Positions 12,434 through 58,787 of a stretch of 64,000 nucleotides of DNA are shown here, piece by piece. The notes beneath the pieces are model-generated. The model saw only the letters and a list, made by a program, of their open reading frames with translations. It made no database searches and was not told where the DNA came from. Positions within the stretch are counted from its first letter, which is position 1. Each line of letters begins with the position of its first letter. Source of the DNA: Candidatus Omnitrophota bacterium (GTDB lineage Bacteria; Omnitrophota; Gorgyraeia; Gygaellales; Profunditerraquicolaceae); contig JAPLLS010000035.1 of assembly GCA_026387435.1 (NCBI GenBank), positions 1,692-65,691 of the forward strand, in the 5' to 3' direction. A program made the translations under genes and the position numbers.

Positions 12434-12778
12434 TTATTCTATAATTATAATTTCATCTTTTATTTGAGTTTTACTGGCTTGAATTGCCCCTTCGGGTAAT
12501 TCAATAGTAGTAATTGCCTTAAAGTAGATCGGGCTTACCCGAAACGGCTTGAACCCGGGAGTTAGGGCGATTACCTGCCTATTGCGGTCCAGGAATATGG
12601 CGTCAAAAGTAAAGCGCATGAAAAAAGAGTGGATGGAATTGGAAGGAGTAATAATTAGGCCTTCGCTTGGCTTAAGGCTGGGGCGATTCAATAGCCCGAC
12701 TAATCTCGAAAAGAATGTATCGGCGGTCTTGGCTTTATCCGCAAGAACCGTGTTGCGGGAACGGTTAATTATCCTCAT
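12434..12778 (-). CDS. DUF192 (COG1430) family protein
   Basis: 114 aa; …ADTFFSRLVGLLNRP…GLIITPSNSIHSFFMRFTFDAIFLDRN… matches the DUF192 pattern. Confidence 0.6.
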   Translation of the reverse strand: MRIINRSRNTVLADKAKTADTFFSRLVGLLNRPSLKPSEGLIITPSNSIHSFFMRFTFDAIFLDRNRQVIALTPGFKPFRVSPIYFKAITTIELPEGAIQASKTQIKDEIIIIE

Positions 12779-14958: not shown

Positions 14959-14959
14959 A

Positions 14960-29090: not shown

Positions 29091-30302
29091 ATGCTGGATA
29101 TAGGAATCGGCTTCAGCCTCGAAGATAATTCTTTCCTGGCTGCAGAAGAAGCGATCAAGCAGGCTAAAAATCAGCTGAATAACAGCGAAAAAATAGATCT
29201 TTGCCTGGTATTCAATTCCTACGATTTTTCGGCGGCCGGAGCGATCAGGGGTTTCAACGCCCTGCTCAGGGATGTCCCGATAATCGGCGCTTCGGGTCCG
29301 GCGATCATTTCCGATAAGGGAATATTCAAACACGGCATAGCGGTGATGTTATTGGGCTTCCCCGACGGCGCTTACTGCCGGGTCGCCGCTACCCGGGATA
29401 TTAGCGAAAAAAATCCTTTTAACTGCGGCAAAGAGCTGGCTGAAAAACTGCTTTTGGGTTTTAAAAACATCCCCCGCAACCTGGGGCTGCTTTTTTTTGA
29501 CCAGCAGATAGAAGGCGGGCCTAATTTTATCGCCGGCCTTCAGGATAACCTCGGCAGAGGCTTCCCCTGCATCGGAACATCCCTCTCCAACCAGTACGAC
29601 CCCTCCCACTCCTGCCTTTATCTCAACAATGAGGCGATCAACAACAGCTGCGCGGGTATCCTTTGGGGAGGAAAAACCACTTTCGGAGTCGGGATCAAAC
29701 ACGGCTGGAAACCGCTGGGTAAACCCCATACCGTATCCAGCGCCGTAGGCAACATCATCAACGCCATCGACGGCAAACCGGCAATCGAGATTTATGAAAA
29801 CTACCTGGGCTACGACGCGGCCAAATTGACAAAAGACCTCAGGAAACTCTCGATCTCTTACCCCATAGGCGTTTTTATCCCCGGAGAAAAAGAATACCTT
29901 TTAAGAAGCGTGGTTTCCATAGAACAACGAGGGGCTTTGGTCTGCCAGGGCAGTATCTTGGAAGGCAGCACCATCAGGCTGATGATCTCTACCCCGGAAA
30001 CCTGCTTGGCCGCAACCACTCAGGCCATCGCAGAAGCCAAGAAAAATTTGTCCGGATCGTTGTTCAAACAGGGCATTGTAAGAAATTCCAGATTTGCTAT
30101 TGTATTTAGCTCGATTTCAAGATACAATTTGCTCAGAAGGGACATTAAGAAAGAGCTTAATCTTATCAAGGCCGGGCTCAAAGATACCCGCTTCCTGGGG
30201 ATCTACACCAGCGGGGAACTGGCGCCTATAACCGCCGGCAGTTACCGCGGCCAGATTTATTTTCATAATCAGGATTTCTCTGTTCTAATTATCGAGGGCT
30301 AA
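29091..30302 (+). CDS. FIST-domain sensor protein (FIST-N + FIST-C)
   Basis: 403 aa. Pattern …DLCLVFNSYDFSAAGAIRGF…VPIIGASGPAIIS… then …FLGIYTSGELAPI… is typical of FIST. It is followed by HK and RR genes. Confidence 0.5.
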   Translation: MLDIGIGFSLEDNSFLAAEEAIKQAKNQLNNSEKIDLCLVFNSYDFSAAGAIRGFNALLRDVPIIGASGPAIISDKGIFKHGIAVMLLGFPDGAYCRVAATRDISEKNPFNCGKELAEKLLLGFKNIPRNLGLLFFDQQIEGGPNFIAGLQDNLGRGFPCIGTSLSNQYDPSHSCLYLNNEAINNSCAGILWGGKTTFGVGIKHGWKPLGKPHTVSSAVGNIINAIDGKPAIEIYENYLGYDAAKLTKDLRKLSISYPIGVFIPGEKEYLLRSVVSIEQRGALVCQGSILEGSTIRLMISTPETCLAATTQAIAEAKKNLSGSLFKQGIVRNSRFAIVFSSISRYNLLRRDIKKELNLIKAGLKDTRFLGIYTSGELAPITAGSYRGQIYFHNQDFSVLIIEG

Positions 30303-30305
30303 TCG

Positions 30306-31790
30306 ATGTTCGAAGTTAACACGGTGCTTGCATTTATCGGATTGCTGGTCGTCATCGCTTTGACTTTTTTGCTTCTGTCCAAGGATTCAAAAATGAATTC
30401 CCTTCAGGCCGCGGTGGACAACCTGCAGAGGGCGCTGGACGAAATGGACGAGCAGGCCAAGCTGGTTGTGCGCACCGACATCGAGCTGAATAAGGCCCAG
30501 GAGGAACTGGACCGGAAAATTACCTCCCTCTATACCCTGCAAAAACTTTCCCGGACGATCAGCTCTACTCTCGAAGAAAATCAGATTTTTAAAAAAGTGG
30601 AGCTTAGCTACCTCGCCGACCTGGGCTTCCAAAAGGCCCTGGCATTTCTCTTTGATGAGAAAGAAAATAAATTCTCGCTGCGCTTAAGCCTCGGCTATGA
30701 GGAGGAAGAAGCCGCAAAGATCAAAACATTCATCGACGCGCATAAGGAAACCTACAACGGACTTATCCATAACGAAAAGGCGGTTTCTTCGATAGCCTCC
30801 AGGGAAAACCCCGCCGACACCAAGAGCACCAAAGAAACATTCGGGGTGGTCTCTTTTGTCTTTGCCCCGATCCTGGCCAAAGAAGGCAATCCCGGCCTGC
30901 TTTTTGTGGGCGCGGAAAAAACGGATACGATCATAACCGAAGGCGACGAAGAATTGATCACCATCCTGGCCAATCAGATCGGCCAGGCGCTGGAAAACGC
31001 CCGCCTGTTCGAAAAAACCTGGCAGGCCCACCAGGACCTGGAAAACCGGGTCGAAGAAAGGACCCGCGAGTTATCCCGGGCCCTGGAAGAAGTCAAAAAA
31101 TTAAGCCAGCGCAAGAATGATTTCGTTTCCAACGTCTCCCACGAATTAAGAACGCCGCTGACCTCGATAAAAGGCTACGCCTCGATCCTCTTATCCGGGA
31201 AACTCGGGGTGCTGCCCGAAGAAGTCGGCAAGCGCCTGGCTAAAATAAACAAGCACTCCGATGAGCTGGTCTCGTTCGTCAACGACCTGCTGGACCTTTC
31301 GCGCATCGAAAGCGGCAAGGTCGAACTTAAACTTGCCCCTCTTAACCTGAAGTCTATCGTCGATGAGGTAGCGGATCTGCTGGCCGTGCAATTTAAAGAG
31401 AAACAAATAGAATTTTCCTCTGAATCTCCGGCCGACCTGCCCGAAGTCATGGCTGATTACAGCCAGATAAAAAGGACCTTCATTAACCTGATCAATAATT
31501 CCGTCAAATACACCCCCCAGGGCAAGATCAAAGTCAGCTTGACCCGGCTGGATAAAGAGGTCCAGGTCGATGTCTCAGACACCGGCTGCGGCATGCCCGA
31601 ATCGGCGATGGATAAATTATTCACCGAATTTTATCGGGTGGATTCGGTAATGAACCAGGAGATCAAAGGCACCGGCCTGGGGTTGGCCATGGTAAAAAAT
31701 ATCGTTACCGCGCACAAAGGGAAGATCTGGGTAAAAAGCAAGGTCGGCTCAGGAACGACTTTCAGCTTCACCCTGCCTCAGGCTTATTAA
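30306..31790 (+). CDS. Sensor histidine kinase (TM, coiled coil, GAF, HisKA, HATPase_c)
   Basis: 494 aa; H-box SHELRTPLTSIKGYASILL; G-boxes …DTGCGMPE… and GTGLGLAMVKNIV. Confidence 0.8.
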   Translation: MFEVNTVLAFIGLLVVIALTFLLLSKDSKMNSLQAAVDNLQRALDEMDEQAKLVVRTDIELNKAQEELDRKITSLYTLQKLSRTISSTLEENQIFKKVELSYLADLGFQKALAFLFDEKENKFSLRLSLGYEEEEAAKIKTFIDAHKETYNGLIHNEKAVSSIASRENPADTKSTKETFGVVSFVFAPILAKEGNPGLLFVGAEKTDTIITEGDEELITILANQIGQALENARLFEKTWQAHQDLENRVEERTRELSRALEEVKKLSQRKNDFVSNVSHELRTPLTSIKGYASILLSGKLGVLPEEVGKRLAKINKHSDELVSFVNDLLDLSRIESGKVELKLAPLNLKSIVDEVADLLAVQFKEKQIEFSSESPADLPEVMADYSQIKRTFINLINNSVKYTPQGKIKVSLTRLDKEVQVDVSDTGCGMPESAMDKLFTEFYRVDSVMNQEIKGTGLGLAMVKNIVTAHKGKIWVKSKVGSGTTFSFTLPQAY

Positions 31791-31803
31791 AAAGAAGGTA
31801 TTT

Positions 31804-32730
31804 ATGCCACTAAGAGTTTTGGTAGTAGACGACGAACCGGATATCCGGGATGTTCTCAAGATCACCCTGGAAGCGGAGAAATACGAAGTTATCGAGGCGG
31901 AAAACGGCGAAGAGGCGATAAAGATAATCACTCAGAAAACTCCGGATCTGGTATTGCTGGATTACAAAATGCCTAAAATGGACGGCCGGGAGGTCTGCCG
32001 CCGGATCAAAAAAGACATCCTTCTGCGTCATCTGCCGATAATCATGGTCACCGGAAAGGGTGAAATAACCGATAAGGTCGACGGGATCGATGCCGGCGCC
32101 GACGATTATATCGTCAAACCCTTTGAACCGGAAGAGCTTTTGGCCCATATCAAAATGATCCTGCGCCGCACGGAGATCGATCTGGAAGCCAACCCCCTGA
32201 CCCGGCTTCCCGGCAACATTTCCATATTAAACGAACTCAATCAGCGATTGAGCAGCCAGAAACTTTTTGCGGTCTGCTACGTGGACCTGGACAAATTCAA
32301 GGCCTATAACGACACTTACGGGTTTGAACGGGGGGATAACGTCATCAAAGAAACCGCGCGCATCCTTTTACGGACGACCCAGGAACTTGGCAATCCCGAC
32401 GATTTTGTCGGCCATATCGGCGGCGACGATTTTGTGGTGGTTACTTCCATTCCCACCGCGGATGTGCTCTGCCCGGGGATCATCGATAATTTCGACAAGG
32501 CGCTCAAAGAATTCTACAATGAGATCGACTGGAAAAACGGTTATATCACCGCCCATGACCGCCAGGGCGCGGAAATAAAAAACCCCCTCTTGTCGATCTC
32601 CATCGGTGTGGTCACTAATGAATCCCGAAAGATCGAGCACGTGGCCCAGATCGGCGAGATCGGAGCGGAATTAAAAGCTTACGCCAAAAGCCAGAAAAAA
32701 AGCAATTACGTGGTGGATAAGCGTAAATAA
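31804..32730 (+). CDS. Response regulator with REC + GGDEF domain (variant GGDDF motif)
   Basis: 308 aa. REC domain: VLVVDDEPDIRD…LLDYKMPKMDG…DDYIVKPF. GGDEF region: …YVDLDKFKAYNDTYGFERGD…GHIGGDDFVVV. Confidence 0.75.
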   Translation: MPLRVLVVDDEPDIRDVLKITLEAEKYEVIEAENGEEAIKIITQKTPDLVLLDYKMPKMDGREVCRRIKKDILLRHLPIIMVTGKGEITDKVDGIDAGADDYIVKPFEPEELLAHIKMILRRTEIDLEANPLTRLPGNISILNELNQRLSSQKLFAVCYVDLDKFKAYNDTYGFERGDNVIKETARILLRTTQELGNPDDFVGHIGGDDFVVVTSIPTADVLCPGIIDNFDKALKEFYNEIDWKNGYITAHDRQGAEIKNPLLSISIGVVTNESRKIEHVAQIGEIGAELKAYAKSQKKSNYVVDKRK

Positions 32731-32736
32731 AAATAG

Positions 32737-32798
32737 GGGACGGTTCTCATTTATTTAAACGGCTCATTCCCGCTTAAAAATAAATAAGAACCGTCCCC
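32737..32798. terminator. Bidirectional rho-independent terminator (22-bp stem, 1 mismatch) between the RR gene and tRNA-Leu
   Basis: GGGGACGGTTCTCATTTATTTA…TAAATAAATAAGAACCGTCCCC. A T-run follows on the plus strand and an A-run precedes it. Confidence 0.6.
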
Positions 32799-32812
32799 GA
32801 GTTTTTATTTAG

Positions 32813-32897
32813 TGCGAGGAGAGGGAGTTGAACCCTCACAGCTTATACAGCCAACAGCCCCTCAAACTGTCGCGTCTGCCAATTCCGCCATCCTCGC
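32813..32897 (-). tRNA. tRNA-Leu (anticodon GAG), 85 nt with a long variable arm
   Basis: Manual fold. Acceptor GCGAGGA/TCCTCGC. D-arm with a 3-bp stem. Anticodon stem ACAGT/GCTGT with loop TTGAGGG. T-arm GAGGG-TTCAACT-CCCTC. Confidence 0.7.
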
Positions 32898-33133
32898 AAA
32901 TTGTTCAAGGAATATATTCTATTACGTATCAAATCTCCTGGCAAGGGAATTAATTGGTGTAAAAAAATAAGTTTGCAAATTTACCAACAATAAGGCATAC
33001 TTTAATTAGAAATAAGCGTTAAATTACAATCTGGTGTTCCTACTGATAAAGGCAAACTAGCAGTAATGCTGGGACGCAAAGCCAAAGGGTCCTAAGAAAT
33101 TTAGGACAGCCTGGCCGCCAAAAGGAAAGACTT

Positions 33134-33172
33134 AAAAGACCCTGAATATTCCTTTTTAGGGTCTTTTTTTTG
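33134..33172 (+). terminator. Rho-independent terminator on the plus strand with no annotated upstream ORF (end of a candidate sRNA)
   Basis: AAGACCCT-GAATATTCCTTTTT-AGGGTCTT followed by TTTTTTTT. Confidence 0.45.
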
Positions 33173-33185
33173 CGCCCGGTATAGT

Positions 33186-33800
33186 TTGCCAGAGTTTTGG
33201 CAGGTTATACCGGGTTTCTTATTTTCGAGGACTAAAATGGCTAGAAAAAGTCTAAAATCCAGAATAATGATCTTAATGCTGACAGCCAGCCTGGTATTTG
33301 CTTATAAACCTCTTTCCGCGGAAATCACACTCCCCTTACCGACTGCTGGCCTGGGCTACAGCGGGATAACCTTTAGCTCGGCTTCAGCGGACCTTTGGCA
33401 ATACCTCAGGATCGGGCTGAACTATCTGGAAAGCCCAAAGCCGCTACAGCCGCCGGAAGCCGTACCCCCTACTTATATCCACCCTGACTCCCAAGGTTTT
33501 GGAGCATACGGGTTTAGCCCCGGAGCTTACCAGGACGTGCAACGGCTTTATCCTTTTTTTCAAAAATACTCCTGGCAGGAAATAATGAACTCCCCGAAGT
33601 TATACGATCTGGCCAACCAGGCTTTTGCGGACTGGCTTTTAAAGAATCTTAAAGATTATATCCCGGAGGGAGCTTCCAAAGAGGAGATCTTTGATGTTTT
33701 ACATCAAGCCTGGAACCTGGGTTTGAGCGGATTTAAAAACGGAAGGCAAGTAGTTGCTTCGAGGGCCAAAAGAGCGCAAGAATTCAAAGGCCGGCTTTAA
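33186..33800 (+). CDS. Secreted hypothetical protein
   Basis: 204 aa. It has a signal peptide (…MILMLTASLVFAYKPLSA). No recognised domain. Confidence 0.4.
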   Translation: MPEFWQVIPGFLFSRTKMARKSLKSRIMILMLTASLVFAYKPLSAEITLPLPTAGLGYSGITFSSASADLWQYLRIGLNYLESPKPLQPPEAVPPTYIHPDSQGFGAYGFSPGAYQDVQRLYPFFQKYSWQEIMNSPKLYDLANQAFADWLLKNLKDYIPEGASKEEIFDVLHQAWNLGLSGFKNGRQVVASRAKRAQEFKGRL

Positions 33801-35560: not shown

Positions 35561-36340
35561 TCATCGCTTTTTTAACGCTACAGCCATGCCCACGGCCACA
35601 GTAGCGCCGCTGGTGTCGTCTATAGACTCGACATCGCCGGCATTAACTTCCCCCCACCAGTTAGGAGAATCTTCATAAGGGCGGGAATTAACGAAAAACT
35701 TCTGCTCCAGTATGGAATTCCCCTGAAACAGCTTATTAAAAGAAGCGATATCATAGACTCGCTGATATTTGGTCATCTGTTTTTTCCCGACCGGAGCGGA
35801 TAAAATAAGCCTGCCTCCATATTTAAGGACGCGTAACGCCTCTTTTACCCCCCGGATATCCGCGCCTTCAATCATCTTGGGATCTTTGTAAAATCCGATC
35901 CCCAAATGCTCAATGGTCGACAGGCATACCATTGCGTCAAAAGTTTCATCCGGGAAAGGCATGGTGCAAATATCCCCCTGCTTGAACGTCAGATTCGGAT
36001 GAACATAGGGATATTCCCGAAAATCATATCCGGTTACCCTGAAGCCTAATCCTGCACCCATCAAAGGCATTGGGCTCTCCACGCAGCCAATATCTAAAAT
36101 ACTGACGGCAACGGGTAGAACGCTGAGGTGTTTTATCGCGAAGGGGATCTCCACCACTCTTTCGTTGATAAAAATTTTATTTAATCTTTCCTGCCCTCTT
36201 AAGGCCTTCCAGTTAAATATTCTTTTAAAAGCGAAATAAAAACCAGTGTTCAAAAAATAATTATTGTCCGGGAATTTAAAAGGGCTTTTCAAAGGCTTAG
36301 CCGGAAATGCAACTTTCGTCAGTTTAGGATTTTTATTCAT
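35561..36340 (-). CDS. Class I SAM-dependent methyltransferase
   Basis: Motif …VSILDIGCVESPMPLMGAGLGFRVTGYDF…AMVCLSTIEHLG. The start is placed at the internal MNKNPK, which resolves the overlap with the upstream gene. Confidence 0.55.
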   Translation of the reverse strand: MNKNPKLTKVAFPAKPLKSPFKFPDNNYFLNTGFYFAFKRIFNWKALRGQERLNKIFINERVVEIPFAIKHLSVLPVAVSILDIGCVESPMPLMGAGLGFRVTGYDFREYPYVHPNLTFKQGDICTMPFPDETFDAMVCLSTIEHLGIGFYKDPKMIEGADIRGVKEALRVLKYGGRLILSAPVGKKQMTKYQRVYDIASFNKLFQGNSILEQKFFVNSRPYEDSPNWWGEVNAGDVESIDDTSGATVAVGMAVALKKR

Positions 36341-36851
36341 AGGGATTGCTGAGAAATTCCAATAGGCAATTAATAATAGTAAGCGGCCCGGGAGGACAAC
36401 CCGGAATATGCAAAACAACCGGCAGAATATCTTTGATCGGTTTTTCAATGTAGTAAGAACCTTTAAAAATACCTCCGTCTAAGGCACAATCGCCGAGAGT
36501 GATCACAAATTTCGGTTCAGCCATAGCCTCATAAGTCTTGTTCAAAGCGATAAGCATGTTCTTGGATAACGGCCCGGTAACCAGCAGAGCGTCCGCGTGG
36601 CGGGGCGAAGCCACAAAATTTACGCCGAAGCGCTGCAAGTCATAGATGGGGTTGGTCGCGGAAATGATCTCCGATTCGCAGCCTCCGCAGGAACCGGTGT
36701 CGACTTCGCGGATATTCAAGGAGCGGCTGAATTTTTTAAATATAGCGGTCCTCAACTCGCCCCCGACGGATTCGATCTCGCGGGATATCTTCCTATCGAT
36801 ATGCCTGGTCACCACGCCTTTTAATATTCTGCTTTTTAATATATTTATCAT
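36333..36851 (-). CDS. NuoB-like small subunit of a group-4 hydrogenase-related (Ehr/Ech-like) complex; all four [4Fe-4S] cysteines present
   Basis: 172 aa; GSCGGCE, GDCALDGG and PGCPP motifs. Confidence 0.75.
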   Translation of the reverse strand: MINILKSRILKGVVTRHIDRKISREIESVGGELRTAIFKKFSRSLNIREVDTGSCGGCESEIISATNPIYDLQRFGVNFVASPRHADALLVTGPLSKNMLIALNKTYEAMAEPKFVITLGDCALDGGIFKGSYYIEKPIKDILPVVLHIPGCPPGPLTIINCLLEFLSNPYE

Positions 36852-36854
36852 GGT

Positions 36855-38432
36855 TTAGAGGTCGTTTCCTGAATACGACAGATCAAAACTTTTATTGCAC
36901 AGCGGAAAATCAGGAATAATATTACCTAAAACCGCATAAGCAAGCCCCTGCCAATTACGAAAAGAAGGATCTACTATCTTGCACCTGGCGATCATTCCCG
37001 CGGGATCAGTTTTAAGCCAGTAGAGAATCGGCCCTCTCCAGCCCTCGACGTAGCCTAAAGCGCAGCCTTCTTTTAATATTGGGCCAACTTTATTTTTATC
37101 GCAGCTGGATAGCTTACCCCCAAATTCCTCGATCAAGCGGCAGGATTCGACGAACTCAAAAATCCTCACTCTCAATCGGGCTAAAACATCCCCGGATTCC
37201 TCCAGCGCCATTTTGAATTTAGCTTCCTTATATACCCCGGGGAAACATTTTCTTAAATCAATGGCTACGCCTGAAGCCCGGCCGGCCAGGCCGAGCACTC
37301 CCAGGTCTTCGGCGGTTTTTTTGATCAAAACTCCGGCTGTATCCACCCTGTCCATAAAAGAACCGCTGGAATATAAAATTTCAACCAACTCATTGAAATC
37401 CCGCTTTATCTGTTCAAGAGATCCCAGAAGCAGCGTTTTCTTGCTTTCATTTATCTCGACGGAAACACCCCCCAGCGCATTAACATTTTTTAGATAACGG
37501 CTGGCAGTAAGCTTTTCGTTCAATTGCAGGATAGCTTCTTTGATGATCGAAGCATATGCGCTGGGATAACTAAAGCCCACATCTAAAGCTATGCCTCCGA
37601 TATCGTTGACGTGATTATACAGCCGCTCCAGCTCTAAAAATATCGCCCTTAAATAAGCTGCCTGAGAAATGATTGATATCCCGGAAATCTTCTCGGCCGC
37701 CCGGGTAAAAGCCAGGCTATGGCTAAAAACCGAATCCCCGCAAACGCATTCCGACAACTTCAGCGCTTCCAGATAAGACTTGCCTTCAAAAAGCTTTTCT
37801 GCTCCCCGATGGGTAAATCCCAGCCTGGGTTCCAGATTTATGATCGGTTCTCCAGCCACGCTAAAGCGGAAATGGCCCGGCCCGATGATCCCGGCATGCA
37901 CCGGCCCGACCGGGACTTCGAATATACCTTCCCCATCCACCCTGCCAAATTTATATTCCCCTAAATTTCCCGGCTGAACTTTCTGGAAATCCTTGCGCAG
38001 GGGGAAATTAGCCTGCGGCCAAACCTCATCATGCAGTTTTAACCGCCTTAAGTCCGGATTTCCCCTGGGCTCGATCCCGAACATCTCCTGGATCTCCCGT
38101 TCAAAGAGGCTGGCCGAATGCATGCTTTTGGCCAAGGTTTCAAAACCAGGGTTATCCTGCGGGATATCCATACTGACCATAACCCACTGGGAACTCCTGA
38201 AACCGCAGAACACGCCATTGACCACGAATACGCCTCTTTCCCGGCGCTCATCGAGGGCAAAAAGCATCATCACCGGCGAAGAAAGAATTTTATGCAGGGC
38301 CAGGGCCGTATCCTTGAAAATCCGCGGATCCACCTTAAGCCTAAGCTCATCCGGATGATCCTGAGAGCTCGCCAGCGCAACAAAATCCGGGAATTTGCTT
38401 TTTAGAGCTGAAATAATTTCTGAACAATCCAT
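36855..38432 (-). CDS. Fused NuoC/NuoD-like (HycE-like) large subunit lacking the NiFe-ligating cysteine pairs
   Basis: 525 aa. N-terminal L1 region reads ECVCGDSVFSH (not RxCGxCxxxH). The C-terminal reads …IVDPSFRNWQG in place of DPCxxC. The NuoD-like core (…ERLYNHVNDIGGIALDVGF…) is retained. Confidence 0.65.
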   Translation of the reverse strand: MDCSEIISALKSKFPDFVALASSQDHPDELRLKVDPRIFKDTALALHKILSSPVMMLFALDERRERGVFVVNGVFCGFRSSQWVMVSMDIPQDNPGFETLAKSMHSASLFEREIQEMFGIEPRGNPDLRRLKLHDEVWPQANFPLRKDFQKVQPGNLGEYKFGRVDGEGIFEVPVGPVHAGIIGPGHFRFSVAGEPIINLEPRLGFTHRGAEKLFEGKSYLEALKLSECVCGDSVFSHSLAFTRAAEKISGISIISQAAYLRAIFLELERLYNHVNDIGGIALDVGFSYPSAYASIIKEAILQLNEKLTASRYLKNVNALGGVSVEINESKKTLLLGSLEQIKRDFNELVEILYSSGSFMDRVDTAGVLIKKTAEDLGVLGLAGRASGVAIDLRKCFPGVYKEAKFKMALEESGDVLARLRVRIFEFVESCRLIEEFGGKLSSCDKNKVGPILKEGCALGYVEGWRGPILYWLKTDPAGMIARCKIVDPSFRNWQGLAYAVLGNIIPDFPLCNKSFDLSYSGNDL

Positions 38433-39856
38433 AACAGGTCCTTTTTAATGAATACCAGCACAAAACCTACCGCGCACATCTGAAAGAATAAAAACAAAAA
38501 AGCCAGCTTAGCGCTTAAAGGAGTACCGGCTGCTTTCATCCCCTTAGGAAGATTGCCAAAAAGCATTTCTCCGAAATGATAAATGAAAGCCCCGAAAATA
38601 ATCGCCAGAAAGAATAACAATAACCCGGCGATCAAATATGAGCCGTTAGTGAAAGCCGCGATTATGATCAGGATCTCGCTGATAAATATGGAAAAAGGCG
38701 GAAATCCGGTCAGCGCGAATACTCCCAAAAGGAGCATGATCCCCGTAAACGGCAGCGCTTTAATTACCCCCCGGATAGCGTTCATATTATGTTTCTGGTA
38801 AGCGCTGACAATATCGCCGGCGCCGAAGAACATGAAAGACTTGACCACCGCGTGATTAAGAACGTGTAAGAGTGCTCCGGCCATGGCTAAAGGAGCGCCT
38901 AAACCTAAACCCACGGAAATTATGCCGACGTGCTCGATACTGCTGTAAGCGAGCAGCCGCTTTAAATCTTTCTGGACCAGAATGAAACACGCGGATAACC
39001 CCAGAGAGATCAAGCCCAGGAGGATCATCAGGTTGCCGAAATAGGAAAACCCAACCCCCTTGATCACGATAATCCCAAATCTCAAAATGGCATAAAGAGC
39101 GGTCTTTAAGAGCACCCCGGAAAGAAGCGCGCTTATGGGAGCCACAGCCTGGCTGTGCGCATCAGGCAGCCAGGTGTGCATGGGAGCTAAGCCGGCTTTG
39201 GTCCCGTAGCCGACCAGGATGAAAATAAAAGCGACTTTGAGGATGTTCTTATCCATTTTTCCGGCTGAAGCAGCCAAAAGCGACCAATTCAAACTTTTCA
39301 CTCCTCCAGAAAGTGAGTATGCATAGGAAAAAAGGATCGTCCCTAAAAGCGCGAAAATTATGCCTACCGAACAAATGATAATGTATTTCCAGGCCGCCTC
39401 TACTGATTCCTTGGTGTTATAAAACCCGACCAAAAACGCCGAAATAAGAGTGGTCATTTCAATGGCCACCCAAAGCATGCCCAGATTATTCATTGCCGGG
39501 ACAAAAAACATCGAGAAACAGAATAGATTAAAAAGAGCATAATAGATCCGGGCTTTTTTCTTGGTCATTAGGCCCTTTTCCATGTCTTTTTTAATATACC
39601 CGATGGAATAAAGCGCGGCCGCGAAAGAAACTATGGAAATAACAAAGATAAAAAACGCGCTCAGCGCGTCCAGGTAGATGAAGCCAAAATACGTACAAGC
39701 GCTGTCGGCCAAAAGCGTTTCTTTTAAAAGCACGGCGCTGGCCGTTAACACAGCCAGGTATCCCAAACTGTTGATTATCCCGAAAACTTTTTTGTTAATA
39801 ACCAGCGCCCCCGCTGCAAGCAGAGCCGGGATGGCCAGGATCAAGACTATCAGCAT
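38402..39856 (-). CDS. NuoM/NuoN/MrpD-like antiporter-type membrane subunit (HyfF-like)
   Basis: 484 aa polytopic protein; complex I subunit 2/4/5 family features. Confidence 0.65.
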   Translation of the reverse strand: MLIVLILAIPALLAAGALVINKKVFGIINSLGYLAVLTASAVLLKETLLADSACTYFGFIYLDALSAFFIFVISIVSFAAALYSIGYIKKDMEKGLMTKKKARIYYALFNLFCFSMFFVPAMNNLGMLWVAIEMTTLISAFLVGFYNTKESVEAAWKYIIICSVGIIFALLGTILFSYAYSLSGGVKSLNWSLLAASAGKMDKNILKVAFIFILVGYGTKAGLAPMHTWLPDAHSQAVAPISALLSGVLLKTALYAILRFGIIVIKGVGFSYFGNLMILLGLISLGLSACFILVQKDLKRLLAYSSIEHVGIISVGLGLGAPLAMAGALLHVLNHAVVKSFMFFGAGDIVSAYQKHNMNAIRGVIKALPFTGIMLLLGVFALTGFPPFSIFISEILIIIAAFTNGSYLIAGLLLFFLAIIFGAFIYHFGEMLFGNLPKGMKAAGTPLSAKLAFLFLFFQMCAVGFVLVFIKKDLLWIVQKLFQL

Positions 39857-39861
39857 AAATT

Positions 39862-40497
39862 TTATCCTTTTAAACGCGAAAGCTTATTAACATCGATATG
39901 GGTAAAGAGTTTGTTGATCCGGTAAACAAAAAAACCCATGATCAAAACGCTCACAAACACGTCAAAAAATATAGCGATCTCCACAAAAAAAGGCATGCCC
40001 CCGGAAACCGCGGAGGCCACCAGAAATAAACCGTTTTCCATTATCAGAAGGCCGATGATCTGGGCCAAAGCGGTCATCCTGAAGATCATCAGGAATATCC
40101 CGGCAAAAACCACAAAAAAAGCTATGGCCAATATGCTGCCCCCCGCCAGCTGGGCCGCGGCGAGAAAATGCCTGGTAAAAACCCAGGATAAATAAGTAAA
40201 CCCCAAAGCCCACAGTAATGATAGCTGGGGATTAATCAATAATCCCAGGTTTTCGTTGGCCTTGATCCGTTTTATGATCCGATTTAAAAAATAAGGGATA
40301 AGAACCACCTTGAGAACAAAAAGCAACCCGGCAATTATATACAAATCCAACTCGTGCTCTTGCAGGGCAATAATCAAAGTTGCCAGGAACAAACAGAATG
40401 ATTGATAACGAAAACTGCGGATCAAAGCCGGGGTCCTTTTGGCAATAACCATAAGGTATGTTGAAACCAGAACCCCGAATAAAATCATAGCCTGCAT
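39862..40497 (-). CDS. Small hydrophobic membrane subunit (HyfE-like)
   Basis: 211 aa with about 6 TM helices. It sits between the antiporter-like and NuoH-like subunits. Confidence 0.5.
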   Translation of the reverse strand: MQAMILFGVLVSTYLMVIAKRTPALIRSFRYQSFCLFLATLIIALQEHELDLYIIAGLLFVLKVVLIPYFLNRIIKRIKANENLGLLINPQLSLLWALGFTYLSWVFTRHFLAAAQLAGGSILAIAFFVVFAGIFLMIFRMTALAQIIGLLIMENGLFLVASAVSGGMPFFVEIAIFFDVFVSVLIMGFFVYRINKLFTHIDVNKLSRLKG

Positions 40498-40498
40498 A

Positions 40499-41419
40499 TT
40501 AAACTCCTAAGATCGCGCAGACGACCGCGATAATTCCCAAGACAAAAGCAAAACCCAGGAAATCCGCCACTCTGAACAAGCGCATCTTGGCCACGGAAAC
40601 CTCGACCAGGGCCACAGAAATGGCAATGATGATTATCCTGGCCAAATACCATAAAAGCCAGAAAATTGTTTGCGCCGGTTCAACTGTTTCCAGGGCCGCG
40701 ATCGGAAAAATGATCTGGGCGATCAGGAAAAACAAGATCATCTGTTTGATGTAAGCGGCCATCTCGATTATCGCCAGCGATCTTCCGGAATATTCCAGGA
40801 TCATTGCTTCGTGGACCATGGTCAATTCCAAATGGGTCTCCTGATTGTCAACCGGGACACGTGAAGTCTCGGCAATGGTTATAAGAAACAGGGCGATCGC
40901 GCTGACTATACAAGATACAGATAGAGCGTGCATACCGCTGAATGCCGAAATATCCGTCGAGTTAAATTGCAGAGATATTGAAAACACCACCAGGCACAAC
41001 GCCGGCTCAACCAGGCTGGAAATAAACATCTCTCTGGACGAGCCCATGCCGCCGAAAGAACTACCCGTATCCAAAGCCGCCAGGGCCAGGAAAAAGCGGC
41101 CCAGGGAAAAAATAAATACCAGGGCCAGGAAATCTCCCATCTGATGCATCGGGCTGGCCAGGATCAATACCGGGATCAGTACTGCCGCGGCTAAAGTCGA
41201 AGAAATCAACACAAAAGGAGCGACCCAGAATATCCAGGATGCGGTTTGCGAGACCACCTCCCCTTTGGAAAAAAGTTTAGCCAGGTTGTAATACGGCTGA
41301 AAAATACTCGGCCCCTGGCGCAGCCGGATATTATTTTTTATCTTGGCGATCAGTCCGCTTAAAAACGGGGCGGCCGCGATAAATAAGATCAATTGCAGAA
41401 TAATCATCAATATTTTCAT
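40499..41419 (-). CDS. NuoH/HycD-like membrane subunit
   Basis: 306 aa; …RLRQGPSIFQPYYNLAKLFSKGEV… is typical of the complex I subunit 1 family. Confidence 0.7.
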   Translation of the reverse strand: MKILMIILQLILFIAAAPFLSGLIAKIKNNIRLRQGPSIFQPYYNLAKLFSKGEVVSQTASWIFWVAPFVLISSTLAAAVLIPVLILASPMHQMGDFLALVFIFSLGRFFLALAALDTGSSFGGMGSSREMFISSLVEPALCLVVFSISLQFNSTDISAFSGMHALSVSCIVSAIALFLITIAETSRVPVDNQETHLELTMVHEAMILEYSGRSLAIIEMAAYIKQMILFFLIAQIIFPIAALETVEPAQTIFWLLWYLARIIIIAISVALVEVSVAKMRLFRVADFLGFAFVLGIIAVVCAILGV

Positions 41420-41423
41420 AGTT

Positions 41424-43250
41424 TTAAAACCGTTGCATAAATACGATTAACAACAATAATGCCACAAAAATATAGGAAATGTACAGATGTATGCTGCCCG
41501 GCTGGATCTTTCTCATGAATTTTGCCGATTTAAAGACCCAATCCAGCGTCGGATCATAAATATATTTTTTGAATATCGGGGTGGTATGGGTTTCATAAGC
41601 GAAGGATTTGACGTGATAGAACGATTCCCGGATCTTCTGCGTTTTGCGGTAAGGCAGGAGAAAAAAACTAAAGGCTATCCGGAAGGGTTTAGAAAAAGCG
41701 GTAGCCGTGTATTCGTTGCGGCCGCCCAGTTTGTAATATCCGCAATCCCAGGTATTATAAATGGTTGCTTTCCTGTTAAAAATACGGTAGAGGACGAAGC
41801 CCGCGCCACCCAGGACAACTAAGGTCAAGGTCAGCATCAGCGGGGAAAGGTAAGCACTTGTTCCCGGCTGCGGGTTGAGGATAAAATTGTTGAGAGAAAA
41901 ACTCATACCATTAAGGTCGATACCCGTCGCGCAGCCGCAGACTTTAGCCAGCAATCTAACCACAAAAACAGCGGCTAAACCGAAAACTACGGTCAAAGTC
42001 GATAAAATAAACATTCCTAACCTCATGGAAAATCCCACCTCTTTCGCATTCAAAGCAAAAGAGCTTCTGGGCTGCGCCAGGAAAGTTATCCCGAAAGCTT
42101 TGACAAAACAGGCCGCGGCCAGTCCGCTGGTCAAAGCGAGCATAGCCGCGCACACAGCCAGGAAAAGCTTGGCTGCTCCGGATACTTTAATGGCGCCCAG
42201 AAAAAACGCCTGCAAAGTGAGCCACTCGCTCACAAAGCCGTTCAAGGGCGGCAACGCCGAGATGGCCATTGCTCCGATGAGGAAAAAAAGCGCGGTCTGC
42301 GGCATCTTTTTGATCAACCCTCCCAGTTTTTCCATATCCCGGGTCCCGGTTGCTTTATAGACGCTTCCGGCGCACAGGAATAAAAGCCCTTTAAAGATGG
42401 CGTGGTTCACCAGGTGATACAGTCCGGCGATCAGCGAGAATATTGACAGATAAGGCATATTCAGGCTCAAAAAGAACATCGCCAGCCCTACTCCTAACAA
42501 GATGATCCCGATATTCTCCACGCTGTGATAAGCCAGCAGCCTCTTAAGATCGTGTTCCATGAGGGCATAGACCACCCCGACCAAACAGGAAATCACGGCC
42601 AGGATCAGGACCAGGATCCCCCACCACGCAGAATGCACTCCCAGAATAAAGATCACGAACCGGATTATTCCATATATCGCGGTTTTGATCATCACCCCGG
42701 ACATGATACTGGAAATATGGCTGGGGGCCTGCGGATGAGCAGCGGGCAGCCAGATATGTAAAGGCACGATGCCGGCCTTGGTCCCGAAACCGACCAAGAG
42801 CAGCAAAAAGACTATATTTTTAGTTTGCCCGTCCATTAGCTGACAGGCATTTTTTATGGATAGGAAATCAAATGAATTGGCGGATTTATACATGATCATA
42901 AAAGCGGCGATCAAAAATGCGGTCCCGATATGGGTCATTACTATATAAATCAACCCCGCCTGGATGGATTTTTCGTTCTTATCATCGAATACGACCAGAA
43001 AATAGGAAACCAAAGACATGATCTCCCAGAAGACCAGGAAAACTAAAACATTGCTGACAACAACCACCAGCCCCATGGATAAAACAAAAATAAGCAGCAA
43101 TATCCAAGCCAGGGCTATTTTGGCCCGGGAGTACTCTCCTTTTAAATAGCCGATGGAATAAATTGCTGACGGCAAACAGACAATAAAGATCACACCCAGA
43201 AAAAATAAAGAAAGCGGATCGAATAATAGGTTAAAATTAATCTTTTCCAT
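41424..43250 (-). CDS. NuoL/HyfB/MrpA-like antiporter-type membrane subunit
   Basis: 608 aa polytopic protein; it is the first gene of the operon. Confidence 0.7.
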   Translation of the reverse strand: MEKINFNLLFDPLSLFFLGVIFIVCLPSAIYSIGYLKGEYSRAKIALAWILLLIFVLSMGLVVVVSNVLVFLVFWEIMSLVSYFLVVFDDKNEKSIQAGLIYIVMTHIGTAFLIAAFMIMYKSANSFDFLSIKNACQLMDGQTKNIVFLLLLVGFGTKAGIVPLHIWLPAAHPQAPSHISSIMSGVMIKTAIYGIIRFVIFILGVHSAWWGILVLILAVISCLVGVVYALMEHDLKRLLAYHSVENIGIILLGVGLAMFFLSLNMPYLSIFSLIAGLYHLVNHAIFKGLLFLCAGSVYKATGTRDMEKLGGLIKKMPQTALFFLIGAMAISALPPLNGFVSEWLTLQAFFLGAIKVSGAAKLFLAVCAAMLALTSGLAAACFVKAFGITFLAQPRSSFALNAKEVGFSMRLGMFILSTLTVVFGLAAVFVVRLLAKVCGCATGIDLNGMSFSLNNFILNPQPGTSAYLSPLMLTLTLVVLGGAGFVLYRIFNRKATIYNTWDCGYYKLGGRNEYTATAFSKPFRIAFSFFLLPYRKTQKIRESFYHVKSFAYETHTTPIFKKYIYDPTLDWVFKSAKFMRKIQPGSIHLYISYIFVALLLLIVFMQRF

Positions 43251-43453: not shown

Positions 43454-43744
43454 TTATCTCTTTTCCCTCTTTAACGAATCCAGGATAAATCCATCGATCC
43501 GCTTCCATAGGTACGAAGAAAATCTCACCGGGTGAGGATTTCCTTGCTTATCACAATACTCAAGATCGTAGCTATTAATCTTATTATAGACGATCAGAAT
43601 AGCTTCTGCGAGCAGATCCTCTCCAAACCGGGCAATTAAGTATGGAAATACTTTCTTGTAAATTCTAAAGATTAATAAACCAATATGGCGCAGAACAAGC
43701 TCATCCTTGCTTTTCTTGGAGCCGTTTTGAGCCTTGAAGATCAA
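43454..43744 (-). CDS. Small protein consisting only of a sigma-70 region-2-like domain
   Basis: 96 aa; …ELVLRHIGLLIFRIYKK…GEDLLAEAILIVYNKINSYD…VRFSSYLWKRIDGFILDSL parallels sigma70_r2. No region 4 is present. Confidence 0.4.
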   Translation of the reverse strand: MIFKAQNGSKKSKDELVLRHIGLLIFRIYKKVFPYLIARFGEDLLAEAILIVYNKINSYDLEYCDKQGNPHPVRFSSYLWKRIDGFILDSLKREKR

Positions 43745-43818
43745 TCTCCTTTCTATTTAGCTACTAAAAATAAAAATCCCCTATGCCGCGCATAAGGGAT
43801 TCATTGTTCGATTCCTCC

Positions 43819-46711: not shown

Positions 46712-47269
46712 TTAAAGCACCTCAATCTTCCCGGGCTGTTTTACCAGCCCCATACCTTCTTTTAAAGCCGCGATGTTTTGCCGGAGCAATTCTGGTTTAT
46801 CTTTAGGGACCGTAGCCTCGATCACTTCTAAAACCGTCTTATCTCTGACCAGGCCGGTTTTGGCCACAAAAGCGCCCAGGGCGACCATGTTCGCGACCTT
46901 GATGCTGCCCAGCTTGAACGCGGTGTCGGTAAAAGGGATCTTCTCAATTGCCGCTTTAGCCTGCGAAGTATCGCCTGCCAGAGAACCGTTGACCAGGATT
47001 ATCCCTTTAGCCTTGACCTGGTTCTTAAACCGCACAAAGGAAGGCTCATTGAAAATTATTAAAGTGTCCGCCTCGGTAATAAGCGGAGACCCTATTTCCT
47101 CGTCGGAAACTATAACCATGCAATTAGCGGTCCCTCCCCTGACTTCCGCGCCGTATGCCGGCAGCCAGGTCACGAATTTCTTCTCAAGCATGGCCGCTTC
47201 GGCAATGATCTTGCCCAGAAGCATAACCCCTTGCCCGCCGTAGCCGGCTATTATGATCTTATTTGTCAT
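46712..47269 (-). CDS. 2-oxoacid:ferredoxin oxidoreductase gamma subunit
   Basis: 185 aa; IIIAGYGGQGVMLLGKIIAEAA. Confidence 0.8.
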   Translation of the reverse strand: MTNKIIIAGYGGQGVMLLGKIIAEAAMLEKKFVTWLPAYGAEVRGGTANCMVIVSDEEIGSPLITEADTLIIFNEPSFVRFKNQVKAKGIILVNGSLAGDTSQAKAAIEKIPFTDTAFKLGSIKVANMVALGAFVAKTGLVRDKTVLEVIEATVPKDKPELLRQNIAALKEGMGLVKQPGKIEVL

Positions 47270-47994
47270 TTTATTCTTCCTAAGGGGAACTCTTTAGACA
47301 TCACATCCTTAATCCAGGCCATCGATTTTACCGGAGATAATCCCCAATAAGTAGGACAGGGAGATAAAACCTCCACCAGGGAAAAACCAGCCTTATTTAT
47401 CTGGTTCTCGAATGCCAGCTTGATCGCTTTTTTCGCTTTGATAATTTCGGTGGGCGATTGCAAAGATACCCGTTCTACATAACAAACCCCGGGCAATTGA
47501 GTTAACAGCTCGGAGATCTTCAAAGGATACCCTTGAATTTTCACGTCCCGGCCTAAGGGGGTAGTCGCGGTCTTCTGGCCGGCAAGGGTAGTAGGCGCCA
47601 TCTGCCCTCCGGTCATGCCGTAAACGGCGTTGTTGATAAATATTACCGTAAGATTCTCCCCGCGGTTGGCGGCATGGATAGTTTCATTGGTGCCGATCGC
47701 CGCCAGATCGCCGTCGCCCTGATAGGTAAAGACTATATTTTGCGGCCGTACTCTTTTGATGGCGGTAGCCACGGCCAAAGCTCTTCCGTGCGCGGCCTCC
47801 GTGCAGTCAAAATCCCAGTAATCATAGGCCAGCACCGCGCAGCCGACAGGAGCAATGGCGATTACGCTCTCCCGGATAGCCAGCTCGTCTATAACCTGGC
47901 AGACAAGCTTATGGGCGATGCCGTGGCCGCAGCCCGGGCAGTAATGCGTTGTTGTATTGCGCAGAGATCCAGGATGTGCGTAAATTTTATCCAT
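47266..47994 (-). CDS. 2-oxoacid:ferredoxin oxidoreductase beta subunit (TPP-binding)
   Basis: 242 aa; CPGCGHGIA…YQGDGD…GMTGGQ. Confidence 0.85.
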   Translation of the reverse strand: MDKIYAHPGSLRNTTTHYCPGCGHGIAHKLVCQVIDELAIRESVIAIAPVGCAVLAYDYWDFDCTEAAHGRALAVATAIKRVRPQNIVFTYQGDGDLAAIGTNETIHAANRGENLTVIFINNAVYGMTGGQMAPTTLAGQKTATTPLGRDVKIQGYPLKISELLTQLPGVCYVERVSLQSPTEIIKAKKAIKLAFENQINKAGFSLVEVLSPCPTYWGLSPVKSMAWIKDVMSKEFPLGRIK

Positions 47995-47997
47995 ATT

Positions 47998-49053
47998 TTA
48001 TTTCTCTAGTTTTTTTATCGCGGCGATTATCTCGCCCTCCGCAGGTATTGCCCCGCCGGCCCGGCCAAAGAATTCCACCGGCCTCGAGCAATTTACGGCG
48101 AGCTTCACATCTTCCACCATTTGCCCGTAGGACATCTCCACGACCAGATATTTTACTTTTTTCCTTGTCTGTTTCGCAAAAGCTTTCACTGGAAAAGGCC
48201 AGAGGCTAATCGGACGGATCAACCCGACTTTTTTGTTTTTTTGCCGGAACTGCCGGATAACACTCTTAATGATCCTGGCCATCCCGCCGTAGGCCACGAC
48301 AATAATTTCAGCGTCGTCTGTAAATTGCTCTTCCCAGCGCTGCTCTTTTTCCTGGGCGGCTTTATATTTTTTTTGTAATTTCAGATTCAATTCTTCAAGC
48401 GCCCCGTCTTTAAGCAACAATGACCGGATTATATTCGCCGGCCTTCCCTGGCAACCAATCAAAGCCCAGGGCTTGGGGTAATGGATGACTTTGCCGGGCT
48501 TAAGCGAAAGCGGCTCCATCATCTGCCCGAGCATGCCGTCTCCTAAGATCATCACCGGGTTGCGGTATTTATCCGCCAGATCAAAAGCGTCGAACATTAA
48601 ACCATACGCTTCTTCTACCGACGAAGGACTTAAAACGATGGAATGATAATCCCCGTGGCCCCCGCCTTTGGTAGCTTGAAAATAATCTGATTGCGAAGGG
48701 GCGATATTGCCCAGCCCCGGGCCGCCGCGCATAATATTCACGATTACCGCCGGCAATTCCGCCCCGGCCAGATATGATATTCCTTCCTGCTTTAAGCTTA
48801 TACCCGGGCTGGAAGAAGAAGTCATTGCCCGCACTCCCGCAGCGCTGGCACCGAAAACCATGTTTATCGCCGCTAACTCCGATTCCGCCTGGATGAAAAC
48901 CCGGTTGTTTTCCGGCATGTTTTTAGCCATGTACGCGGTCAGCTCGTTCTGGGGAGTTATGGGATACCCGGCATAAAAACCGCAGCCGGCCCGGATCGCC
49001 GCTTCGGCGATCGCTTCGTTTCCCGTCATTAAGATTCTGCTTTTATCAGCCAT
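47998..49053 (-). CDS. 2-oxoacid:ferredoxin oxidoreductase alpha subunit
   Basis: 351 aa; family features and position between the delta and beta subunits. Confidence 0.8.
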   Translation of the reverse strand: MADKSRILMTGNEAIAEAAIRAGCGFYAGYPITPQNELTAYMAKNMPENNRVFIQAESELAAINMVFGASAAGVRAMTSSSSPGISLKQEGISYLAGAELPAVIVNIMRGGPGLGNIAPSQSDYFQATKGGGHGDYHSIVLSPSSVEEAYGLMFDAFDLADKYRNPVMILGDGMLGQMMEPLSLKPGKVIHYPKPWALIGCQGRPANIIRSLLLKDGALEELNLKLQKKYKAAQEKEQRWEEQFTDDAEIIVVAYGGMARIIKSVIRQFRQKNKKVGLIRPISLWPFPVKAFAKQTRKKVKYLVVEMSYGQMVEDVKLAVNCSRPVEFFGRAGGAIPAEGEIIAAIKKLEK

Positions 49054-49057
49054 ATTT

Positions 49058-49306
49058 TTATTTATAAACCTCGATGCAGCAATCCGGACAAATAATCGCG
49101 CAAAAACTGCATCCTAAACAATCACCTTTGTCTTCAAAGGTAACGGGATTAACGCCTTTTTTATTCAATGTTTTCTCGGCCTTGATCCTGGCCTTGGGGC
49201 AAACCCCGACACAAAGAAAACACCCTTTACATTTTTCTTTATCTATGGTTATCTTAGCCATTTTTAAGCAACTCTTTCTTGGCCCGGTTGGCAATGCCCT
49301 GGGCAT
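49058..49306 (-). CDS. 2-oxoacid:ferredoxin oxidoreductase delta subunit (2x[4Fe-4S] ferredoxin); the true start is probably the internal MAKITIDKEKC at ~49261
   Basis: CKGCFLCVGVCP and CLGCSFCAIICP. Gene order delta-alpha-beta-gamma. Confidence 0.75.
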   Translation of the reverse strand: MPRALPTGPRKSCLKMAKITIDKEKCKGCFLCVGVCPKARIKAEKTLNKKGVNPVTFEDKGDCLGCSFCAIICPDCCIEVYK

Positions 49307-58568: not shown

Positions 58569-58787
58569 TATATCCCCGCCTGTGCCGTTGATACCTGAAA
58601 CGCTGAACCTTTCGGTTTCAGGTGGGTGCCTTGTCCGGATACCAAGGTATCCTGGAAGTCAGGCTCCCATAATTATACTGTTGGTTCAACAATTCTCAGG
58701 CAATAGCCAACGAACACTGCAGGGATTTATCTTTCGCAATTAAAGTATAACACAAAAAGCCGGTACGTCAATATCACCGTAATACCT

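Follow-up and report, generated by a model that had tools for sequence, protein, structure and literature searches.

The stretch analysed here (the window) comprises 64,000 nucleotides (nt) of contig JAPLLS010000035.1 from a Candidatus Omnitrophota bacterium and carries an operon for a complex-I-like membrane complex, which very probably belongs to the energy-converting-hydrogenase-related (Ehr) family. Six open reading frames (ORFs) on the minus strand, abutting or overlapping one another, fill positions 36333-43250; ehrD and ehrL overlap by 31 nt, and the remaining junctions are gaps of 1-5 nt. The initial annotation of this DNA listed the same six genes in the same order, although its title spoke of a five-subunit complex. 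The subunit names are those of Geobacter sulfurreducens (ehrA-B-C-D-L-S, GSU0739-45), for which Ehr was first named.

Subunit families were assigned by Pfam and NCBIfam, and the NuoL-, NuoH-, HyfE-, NuoN-, fused NuoC/D- and NuoB-like assignments made initially were confirmed. The first gene, ehrA (41424-43250), encodes a NuoL/HyfB/HycC-like antiporter-type subunit of 608 amino acids (aa) with a match to PF00361 (Proton_antipo_M, 1.6e-60); its match to the NCBIfam HyfB (hydrogenase-4 subunit B) model begins at profile position 70. It is followed by ehrB (40499-41419; 306 aa), encoding a NuoH/HycD-like membrane subunit (PF00146, NADHdh, 8.7e-34), and by ehrC (39862-40497; 211 aa), the product of which is HyfE-like and NuoK-related (NCBIfam 'hydrogenase 4 membrane subunit', 1.1e-24; weak PF00420). 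A second antiporter-type subunit, NuoN/HyfF-like, is encoded by ehrD (38402-39856; 484 aa; PF00361, 9.4e-48; HyfF (hydrogenase-4 subunit F) model, 2.4e-134). The HycE-like large subunit is the product of ehrL (36855-38432; 525 aa), in which NuoC- and NuoD-like parts are fused (PF00329, Complex1_30kDa, and PF00346, Complex1_49kDa), and the NuoB/HycG/MbhJ-like small subunit is that of ehrS (36333-36851; 172 aa; PF01058, Oxidored_q6, 9.3e-28). The equivalog-type NCBIfam Nuo and Hyf models all remained below their curated cut-offs with the ehr proteins, which are therefore relatives of those enzymes and not members; the general NuoB subfamily model NF005012 alone just made its cut-off (117.1 vs 116 bits).

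Redox subunits EhrL and EhrS

EhrL was compared with PDB sequences by phmmer. The top match was Escherichia coli HycE (7z0s_E, 5.4e-61), with an alignment running nearly end to end. In the region of the N-terminal NiFe motif (L1), EhrL LSECVCGDSVFSH stands opposite HycE LSDRVCGICGFAH, and the L1 equivalent is E228-C229-V230-C231-G232-D233-S234 (37731-37751, minus strand), opposite D-R-V-C-G-I-C of HycE. The Arg of the motif is replaced by C229, the position of the first NiFe Cys is taken by C231, and the second Cys is replaced by S234. The alignment supports the initial statement that L1 is replaced by ECVCGDS, with the correction that the first NiFe position is still a Cys, though one not conserved in homologues. 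The C-terminal motif (L2) had been mis-registered, however, as DPSFRN (aa 488-493; 36954-36971, minus strand). This hexapeptide is a conserved xPSFxN strand common to NuoD and HycE and lies opposite AATYAN of HycE and APSFVN of Thermus Nqo4. The true L2 equivalent is D517-L-S519-Y-S-G522-N-D524 (36861-36884, minus strand), opposite D-P-C-Y-S-C-T-D of HycE; when SFDLSYSGND is aligned with SLDPCYSCTD, both Cys are gone, being replaced by S519 and G522. Because EhrL ends one residue after L2, it has no C-terminal extension for cleavage.

Three of the four NiFe Cys ligands are missing from EhrL in this alignment. Furthermore, the Glu of GPxHxxxxEP, in the loop adjoining the metal site, is replaced by Gly184 (37881-37883, minus strand); a Glu stands at this position in HycE and MbhL and in 90% or more of the large subunits of Ehr. 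Residues were also counted in close homologues of EhrL (119 of the best 120 matches). Position 184 was Gly in 117 of these and Pro in one, position 229 was Cys in 105 and Arg in 13, and position 231 was Ser in 89, Cys in 21 and Ala in eight. As position 231 varies among the homologues, C231 is a variable residue and not a ligand; the possibility that it is a retained ancestral ligand was rejected, since Cys occurs there sporadically in the tree amid a Ser/Ala background. Despite the mis-registration of L2, the earlier conclusion that EhrL would be unable to ligate a NiFe centre stands on the alignment to HycE. No match to the hyp maturation families was found among the scanned ORFs of the window, a set that leaves out several smaller ORFs and includes some without any family match.

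The former metal pocket is strongly conserved in a new form, and few parts of EhrL are as well conserved. When 37 Ehr sequences were aligned, Y520, G522 and D524 were invariant, and E228, G232, D233 and S519 were each conserved in at least 90%. The family-wide motifs at this site, ER[IV]SGD and NKSxxLSYSGxD, are invariant or nearly so, which argues for a conserved, functional pocket in EhrL. An AlphaFold2 model of EhrL, built on 37 family sequences, had a predicted local distance difference test (pLDDT) score of 90.6; its best fold match was HycE with a template-modelling (TM) score of 0.94, and the second was E. coli NuoCD with 0.88.

The small subunit keeps the four cluster cysteines, as initially annotated. 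C55, C58, C122 and C152 of EhrS (36396-36689) align with the [4Fe-4S] ligands of MbhJ, HycG and NDUFS7 (6cfw_J and 7z0s_G alignments), pointing to one predicted [4Fe-4S] site, and the protein has neither a further cluster motif nor a ferredoxin-like extension. The CCCC pattern was found in every locus of the Omnitrophota clade with a complete EhrS, and of 77 EhrS sequences about 70 retain the full set. In agreement with the initial annotation, there was no NuoI/HycF-like gene in the ehr operon, nor in the 64-kb window as scanned in six frames for CxxCxxCxxxC; the sole ORF with such motifs (49058-49306) encodes the delta subunit (82 aa) of a 2-oxoacid:ferredoxin oxidoreductase.

The absence of a NuoI-like protein is a trait of the subfamily and is not universal in Ehr. 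The small subunit is ~170 aa in Omnitrophota and Nitrospira, and in the Acidobacteria and Bacillota types it reaches 260-350 aa, several of these proteins having two extra CxxCxxCxxxC motifs. In a few related loci, L and S are separated by a ferredoxin gene of its own. These differences between subfamilies agree with Supplementary Note 4 of the Margulisbacteria paper; in the Margulisbacteria/Firmicutes type, NuoI is fused to NuoB.

Membrane subunits and family placement

EhrA and EhrD align with HycC, MbhH, MbsH and NuoL/M/N, EhrA lying opposite residues 67-485 of HycC. E76, K158, K189 and K287 of EhrA are conserved in 57-64 of 64 orthologues. E133 and K339 of EhrD are invariant in 76 orthologues, and K220 is Lys in 75 of them, with one gap; K251, a Lys in the protein of the window, is Asn in 48 of the 76 relatives. 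The loop glutamates E184, E198 and E204 of EhrB are invariant in 67 orthologues, in which E209 is Glu (65) or Asp (two), and E154 of EhrC is Glu in 64 of 71 orthologues and Asp in seven. The predicted set of ion-channel residues of the membrane subunits is complete. The N-terminus of EhrA is ~65 residues, or two transmembrane helices, shorter than in most family members. A frameshift was rejected as the cause, as the three upstream frames hold no ORF resembling such helices. The short form is common to the Omnitrophota loci L002, L006 and L023 and partial in L004 and in the archaeal-labelled L039; its recurrence in the first three indicates a trait of the clade and not an artefact.

EhrL is 100% identical to a protein from a Candidatus Omnitrophica metagenome-assembled genome (MAG), which carries the NCBI label "NADH-quinone oxidoreductase subunit C". 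The best 120 of 7,921 homologous proteins (E <= 1e-10) were all at least 70% identical, and the taxon-bearing source names among these 120 were all Omnitrophota or Omnitrophica. The ratio of nonsynonymous to synonymous substitution rates (dN/dS) against an 88%-identical homologue was 0.12 for EhrL and 0.14 for EhrS; that of all six ehr genes against a 76%-identical operon was 0.05-0.12, with dS at or near saturation. The ehr genes are under purifying selection.

A HMMER scan of 1.84 billion cluster representatives (50% identity) gave 847 matches below 1e-30. The closest representatives, at 58-40% identity, were Cys-less, with ER[IV]SGD at L1 and NLSY[SA]G.D[LR] at L2, and Cys-bearing group-4 representatives (ERICGxC ... 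ELCYxCxDR) began at 40% identity and lower. In a crude neighbour-joining tree, EhrL was placed inside the Cys-less clade, and the Cys-bearing sequences formed a separate, sister clade. A scan of GTDB species representatives revealed at least 594 related loci; the gene orders and motif counts that follow are those of the best 80, among which there are no Geobacter sequences. The gene order in most of them was A-B-C-D-L-S or S-A-B-C-D-L, and the L2 cysteines were absent in 73 of the 80. These loci were labelled Omnitrophota, Saganbacteria, Nitrospirota, Acidobacteriota, Rokubacteria, Bacillota, Actinomycetota, Chloroflexota, Patescibacteria and several archaeal lineages, with ~15 bacterial and archaeal lineages overall.

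Ehr was surveyed by Marreiros et al. (2013) and has been seen as connecting Mrp antiporters with energy-converting hydrogenases and complex I. Later reports of Ehr concern Margulisbacteria, Saganbacteria, Melainabacteria, Elusimicrobia and Nitrospira. The trees in the study of hot-spring comammox Nitrospira put Ehr next to group 4f. The papers on Geobacter, on Margulisbacteria, Saganbacteria, Melainabacteria and Elusimicrobia, and on Nitrospira all give the function as unknown, as did the initial annotation. Our literature searches found no description of Ehr in Omnitrophota. The link between the present loci and published Ehr rests on two of them: L008 is the Nitrospira MAG QZM_B4_2_Bin429, from the hot-spring comammox study, and L007 is a MAG from Saganbacteria, a lineage with published Ehr. 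L007 (6757-10054) is also the closest non-Omnitrophota relative, with 58% identity and likewise Gly184. In this locus ehrD, ehrL and ehrS were recognisable and ehrA, ehrB and ehrC were not detected; the three recognisable genes come after an unassigned 247-aa ORF and SNF2 helicases.

The operon shares with published Ehr its subunit set, the loss of the NiFe CxxC motifs and the retained small-subunit cluster, and it combines a Cys-less large subunit, a NuoB-like small subunit with cluster ligands and the membrane subunits A-B-C-D in one operon, as is characteristic of Ehr. Group 4 [NiFe] hydrogenases are marked by four Cys in two CxxC motifs and by the Glu of GPxHxxxxEP, which EhrL does not have; complex I has at least 11 core subunits, NuoA, NuoI, NuoJ and NuoK among them, which pass the Nuo cut-offs, and only six genes are present here. 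Taken together with the Cys-less nearest relatives and their common gene order, on which the Ehr-like identity proposed at the outset proves well founded, these findings leave little doubt that the operon is a member of the Ehr family. The complex would consist of six subunits and be complex-I-like, a descendant of group-4 [NiFe] hydrogenases that has lost its NiFe site. The new member is the Omnitrophota-specific clade; the family itself was named ~twenty years ago and is still uncharacterised.

Compared with other Ehr, the Omnitrophota clade has Gly in place of Glu184, usually Cys in place of Arg229, an EhrA N-terminus shorter by ~65 residues and Lys in place of Asn at position 251 of EhrD, and the Ehr of the window lacks the NuoI-like domain found as a NuoI-NuoB fusion in the Margulisbacteria/Firmicutes type. 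Among the enzymes of group 4a, E. coli formate hydrogenlyase and hydrogenase 4 (HycCDEFG; HyfBCEFGHI), HycE is the best match of EhrL in both sequence and fold. These enzymes resemble Ehr in their fused NuoC/D large subunit, and hydrogenase 4 also in the gene order HyfB, HyfC, HyfE, HyfF, HyfG, HyfI. Unlike these enzymes, the present Ehr has no NiFe Cys, proton-relay Glu or C-terminal maturation peptide, and its operon has no HycF/HyfH ferredoxin subunit, formate dehydrogenase or HyfA. The Cys-bearing sister clade, for which the label group 4f (Ehf-type) is taken from the literature, shares the operon order with Ehr but keeps the four Cys as well as a 2x[4Fe-4S] domain on the small subunit or a ferredoxin gene beside it. 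Complex I, NDH-1, Fpo and the membrane-bound hydrogenase (MBH) and sulfane sulfur reductase (MBS) of Pyrococcus have in common with Ehr the NuoB, C, D, H and L/M/N modules and the conserved antiporter-type Glu and Lys, whereas the present Ehr has one iron-sulfur (Fe-S) cluster and neither NuoI, NuoA, NuoJ, an input module nor quinone ligands. Nor are the two cysteines of MBS type conserved in Ehr.

Possible function of the complex

We propose that the single [4Fe-4S] cluster of EhrS would be reduced directly by a soluble low-potential carrier, for which reduced ferredoxin is the most plausible candidate. The cluster would be directly reachable because no NuoI/HycF-like relay subunit covers it, and ferredoxin is the natural choice because the bacterium encodes a 2-oxoacid:ferredoxin oxidoreductase. 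From the cluster, electrons would pass to an acceptor in the pocket at the EhrL/EhrS/EhrB junction, the position occupied by NiFe in hydrogenases and by quinone in complex I, and this transfer would drive H+ or Na+ through EhrB/EhrC and the antiporter-like EhrA and EhrD; operation in the opposite direction would also be possible. A redox role is supported by the addition, in other Ehr subfamilies, of a 2x[4Fe-4S] domain to EhrS or of a separate ferredoxin gene, by the greater abundance of G. sulfurreducens Ehr subunits on formate, and by the ferredoxin-reducing 2-oxoacid:ferredoxin oxidoreductase encoded 3.5 kb upstream of ehr. The latter enzyme (46712-49306, same strand) has four subunits (delta, alpha, beta, gamma) and is a possible source of reduced ferredoxin for Ehr. 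The specific picture of a ferredoxin-fed, single-cluster, ion-translocating redox pump is offered tentatively, with somewhat less than even confidence; the best explanation overall, an Ehr family member with the proposed redox mechanism, seems to us about evenly balanced between right and wrong.

Several observations weigh against this proposal. No electron donor, acceptor or partner enzyme emerged from the analysis. The genes beside ehr differ among Omnitrophota loci and give no pointer to a partner, and the linkage to 2-oxoacid:ferredoxin oxidoreductase is not conserved elsewhere. Literature searches for structural or biochemical work on Ehr returned only genomic mentions, and no Ehr occurred among the PDB matches. 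Within EhrL, Glu184 beside the former metal site is replaced by Gly throughout this clade, and the quinone head-group ligands His38 and Tyr87 of Thermus Nqo4 are absent, their positions being occupied by Ile183 and Gly232; as predicted from these residues, the site is neither hydrogenase-like nor complex-I-like. Apart from these points, an association of Ehr with formate dehydrogenase, an idea from the literature, was rejected: neither the window nor the Saganbacteria locus L007 encodes formate dehydrogenase or NuoE/F.

A further point against the proposal comes from five related loci in which EhrS lacks three or four of the cluster Cys (TCDD, DCGD, SEGD or TEGD) and yet the EhrL motifs are unchanged. 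These are L012 (Daviesbacteria; operon at 4182-11425), L030 (Saccharibacteria; 4361-11560) and L053 (Patescibacteria; 4283-11419), together with L022 and L048 under other labels, and all have the full operon in the order S-A-B-C-D-L. EhrL of the Patescibacteria type keeps ER[IV]SGD, NLSYSG.D and Glu184, and its complex would be a complex-I-like module without any Fe-S cluster. Since the cluster Cys were lost from EhrS with the EhrL motifs kept, the core function of the family may not need electron transfer. Because of these relatives, we keep open a reading in which the NuoI-less, single-cluster Ehr of the window is a minimal coupling machine and its conserved EhrL pocket (E228, G232, D233, S519, Y520, D524) binds something else than an electron acceptor, for example a cation, proton relay or small-molecule effector; the core activity throughout the family would then be ion translocation gated, not driven, by electron transfer. 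We consider this rather unlikely; if true, it would make Ehr a living intermediate linking Mrp antiporters to redox-driven pumps.

The same five loci, with their full operons and intact EhrL motifs, also speak for a redox-independent ion translocator, which would work like an Mrp-type cation/proton antiporter or an ion channel. EhrL and EhrS would then cap it in a structural or regulatory role, and the [4Fe-4S] cluster, instead of conducting electrons, would serve as a structural element or a redox sensor. The lack of an electron-input module, NuoI, NiFe site and quinone ligands and the retention of all canonical antiporter residues would fit such a device. It would not readily account for the four Cys of EhrS, which purifying selection maintains in this clade and most of the family, nor for the former active-site pocket being so conserved, and the two [4Fe-4S] clusters added in other subfamilies make sense only for electron transfer. 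A translocator of this kind is unlikely in our judgement but has an appreciable chance. A complex-I-type quinone reductase, namely a ferredoxin:quinone oxidoreductase like photosynthetic NDH-1 or Fpo, is suggested by the complex I Pfam families of the subunits, by the NCBI name NuoC for EhrL and by NuoCD as the second-best fold match. We regard it as decidedly improbable: the NCBIfam Nuo models score far below their cut-offs (NuoD, for example, 194 bits vs 360), NuoA, NuoJ, NuoI and NuoEFG are missing, the quinone-site His and Tyr are absent, and EhrL is nearer to HycE than to NuoD in sequence and in fold. Moreover, no quinone biosynthesis genes were found in the 64-kb window, the adjacent chorismate-binding enzyme being PabB and not MenF.

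MBS shows that a relative without NiFe can have new chemistry, and chains of its structure (6u8y) appear among the PDB matches of EhrL and EhrD. A thiol- or sulfur-based reductase of this type could operate through Cys229 and Cys231 beside the EhrS cluster, a C-x-C pair at the former L1 site, of which C229 is frequent in the close homologues. Position 231, however, is Ser or Ala in 97 of these 119 sequences, and position 229 is Arg not only in 13 of them but in nearly all other Ehr; as both residues vary, the pair is not a conserved catalytic feature. The match of EhrL to MbsL (1.1e-22) is also much weaker than that to HycE, and we consider such a reductase very improbable. There remain a working [NiFe] hydrogenase with unusual ligands and a decaying pseudogene cluster, both of which are scarcely credible. 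A weak match to PF00374 (NiFeSe_Hases) over aa 209-275 of EhrL and the one Cys left at the L1 position recall a hydrogenase, but three ligands are gone, the fourth is variable and the C-terminal extension is lacking. Decay is excluded by the intact ORFs, by dN/dS values of 0.05-0.14 and by at least 120 homologues at 70% identity or more. The redox pump, tentative as it is, is the most likely of the readings.

Surroundings of the operon and implications

The genes flanking ehr are housekeeping or unrelated ones, encoding GlnRS, an S-adenosylmethionine (SAM)-dependent methyltransferase, PabB, GluRS, DXS, XseA and a Tad pilus cluster. None of 15 neighbours in the window (GlnRS, the methyltransferase, PabB, GluRS, oxidoreductase subunits, DXS and others) was conserved beside ehr in seven Omnitrophota/Saganbacteria loci, and the 76%-identical operon sits between genes for an acyltransferase and a pyruvate kinase. 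Conservation of the six-gene module while its neighbours change indicates that it is self-contained. The gene for the methyltransferase (35561-36340, minus strand; Methyltransf_11/DUF268-like) overlaps the stop of ehrS by 8 nt at its start and is probably co-transcribed with the operon. It was rejected as a part of the Ehr system, being absent beside ehr in all related loci.

On the other side, a terminator-like hairpin with a 13-bp stem and a following T-run (43774-43802, minus strand) lies 3' of the upstream pabB and is the upstream limit of the ehr transcription unit. A consensus scan for promoters gave no excess of matches over shuffled sequence and no promoter-like site between this hairpin and ehrA, and no 5' riboswitch or other RNA was found near the operon by Rfam. 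Between the pabB terminator and ehrA there is a 96-aa ORF with a TTG start (43454-43744, minus strand), which shows a weak match to sigma-70 region 2 (E 3.6e-4, below cut-off) and, in related loci, is not a conserved feature of the region upstream of ehr.

Elsewhere in the window, a cyclic di-GMP (c-di-GMP)-I riboswitch of the GGC type (33042-33123, plus strand) lies directly upstream of a 204-aa ORF without family match (33186-33800). It is adjoined by genes for FIST, histidine kinase and response-regulator-GGDEF proteins (29091-32730), and the whole region (29091-33800) looks like a local c-di-GMP circuit. A 6S RNA was detected at 58569-58728 (minus strand; Rfam RF00013, 76 bits). The Tad/Flp-type pilus cluster (4501-17814, minus strand) encodes two TadB/C-like T2SSF proteins, RcpC, a 726-aa CpaF-like ATPase with an N-terminal ParA/MinD-like domain and a secretin with a TonB_C domain; a survey of Omnitrophota linked Tad pili to host attachment. 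From position 1 to ~4400 (minus strand), a reading frame of at least 1332 codons runs past the left end of the window and may belong to the 'big ORFs' described in Omnitrophota.

Because the organism is uncultured, this operon does not make the question of Ehr function more testable, and the finding will not surprise a specialist. Its practical value is one of annotation caution. In a large survey of Omnitrophota, PF00346 served as the marker of 'respiratory complex I'; as EhrL matches this family and is labelled NuoC by NCBI, respiratory capacity may be over-called in such Omnitrophota genomes. Ehr is widespread, as judged from the ~15 bacterial and archaeal lineages in the labels of its loci, and the window adds to it a well-conserved Omnitrophota clade that represents the barest form of Ehr, with one Fe-S cluster and no relay ferredoxin. 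This variant is worth including in comparative or structural studies of the family.

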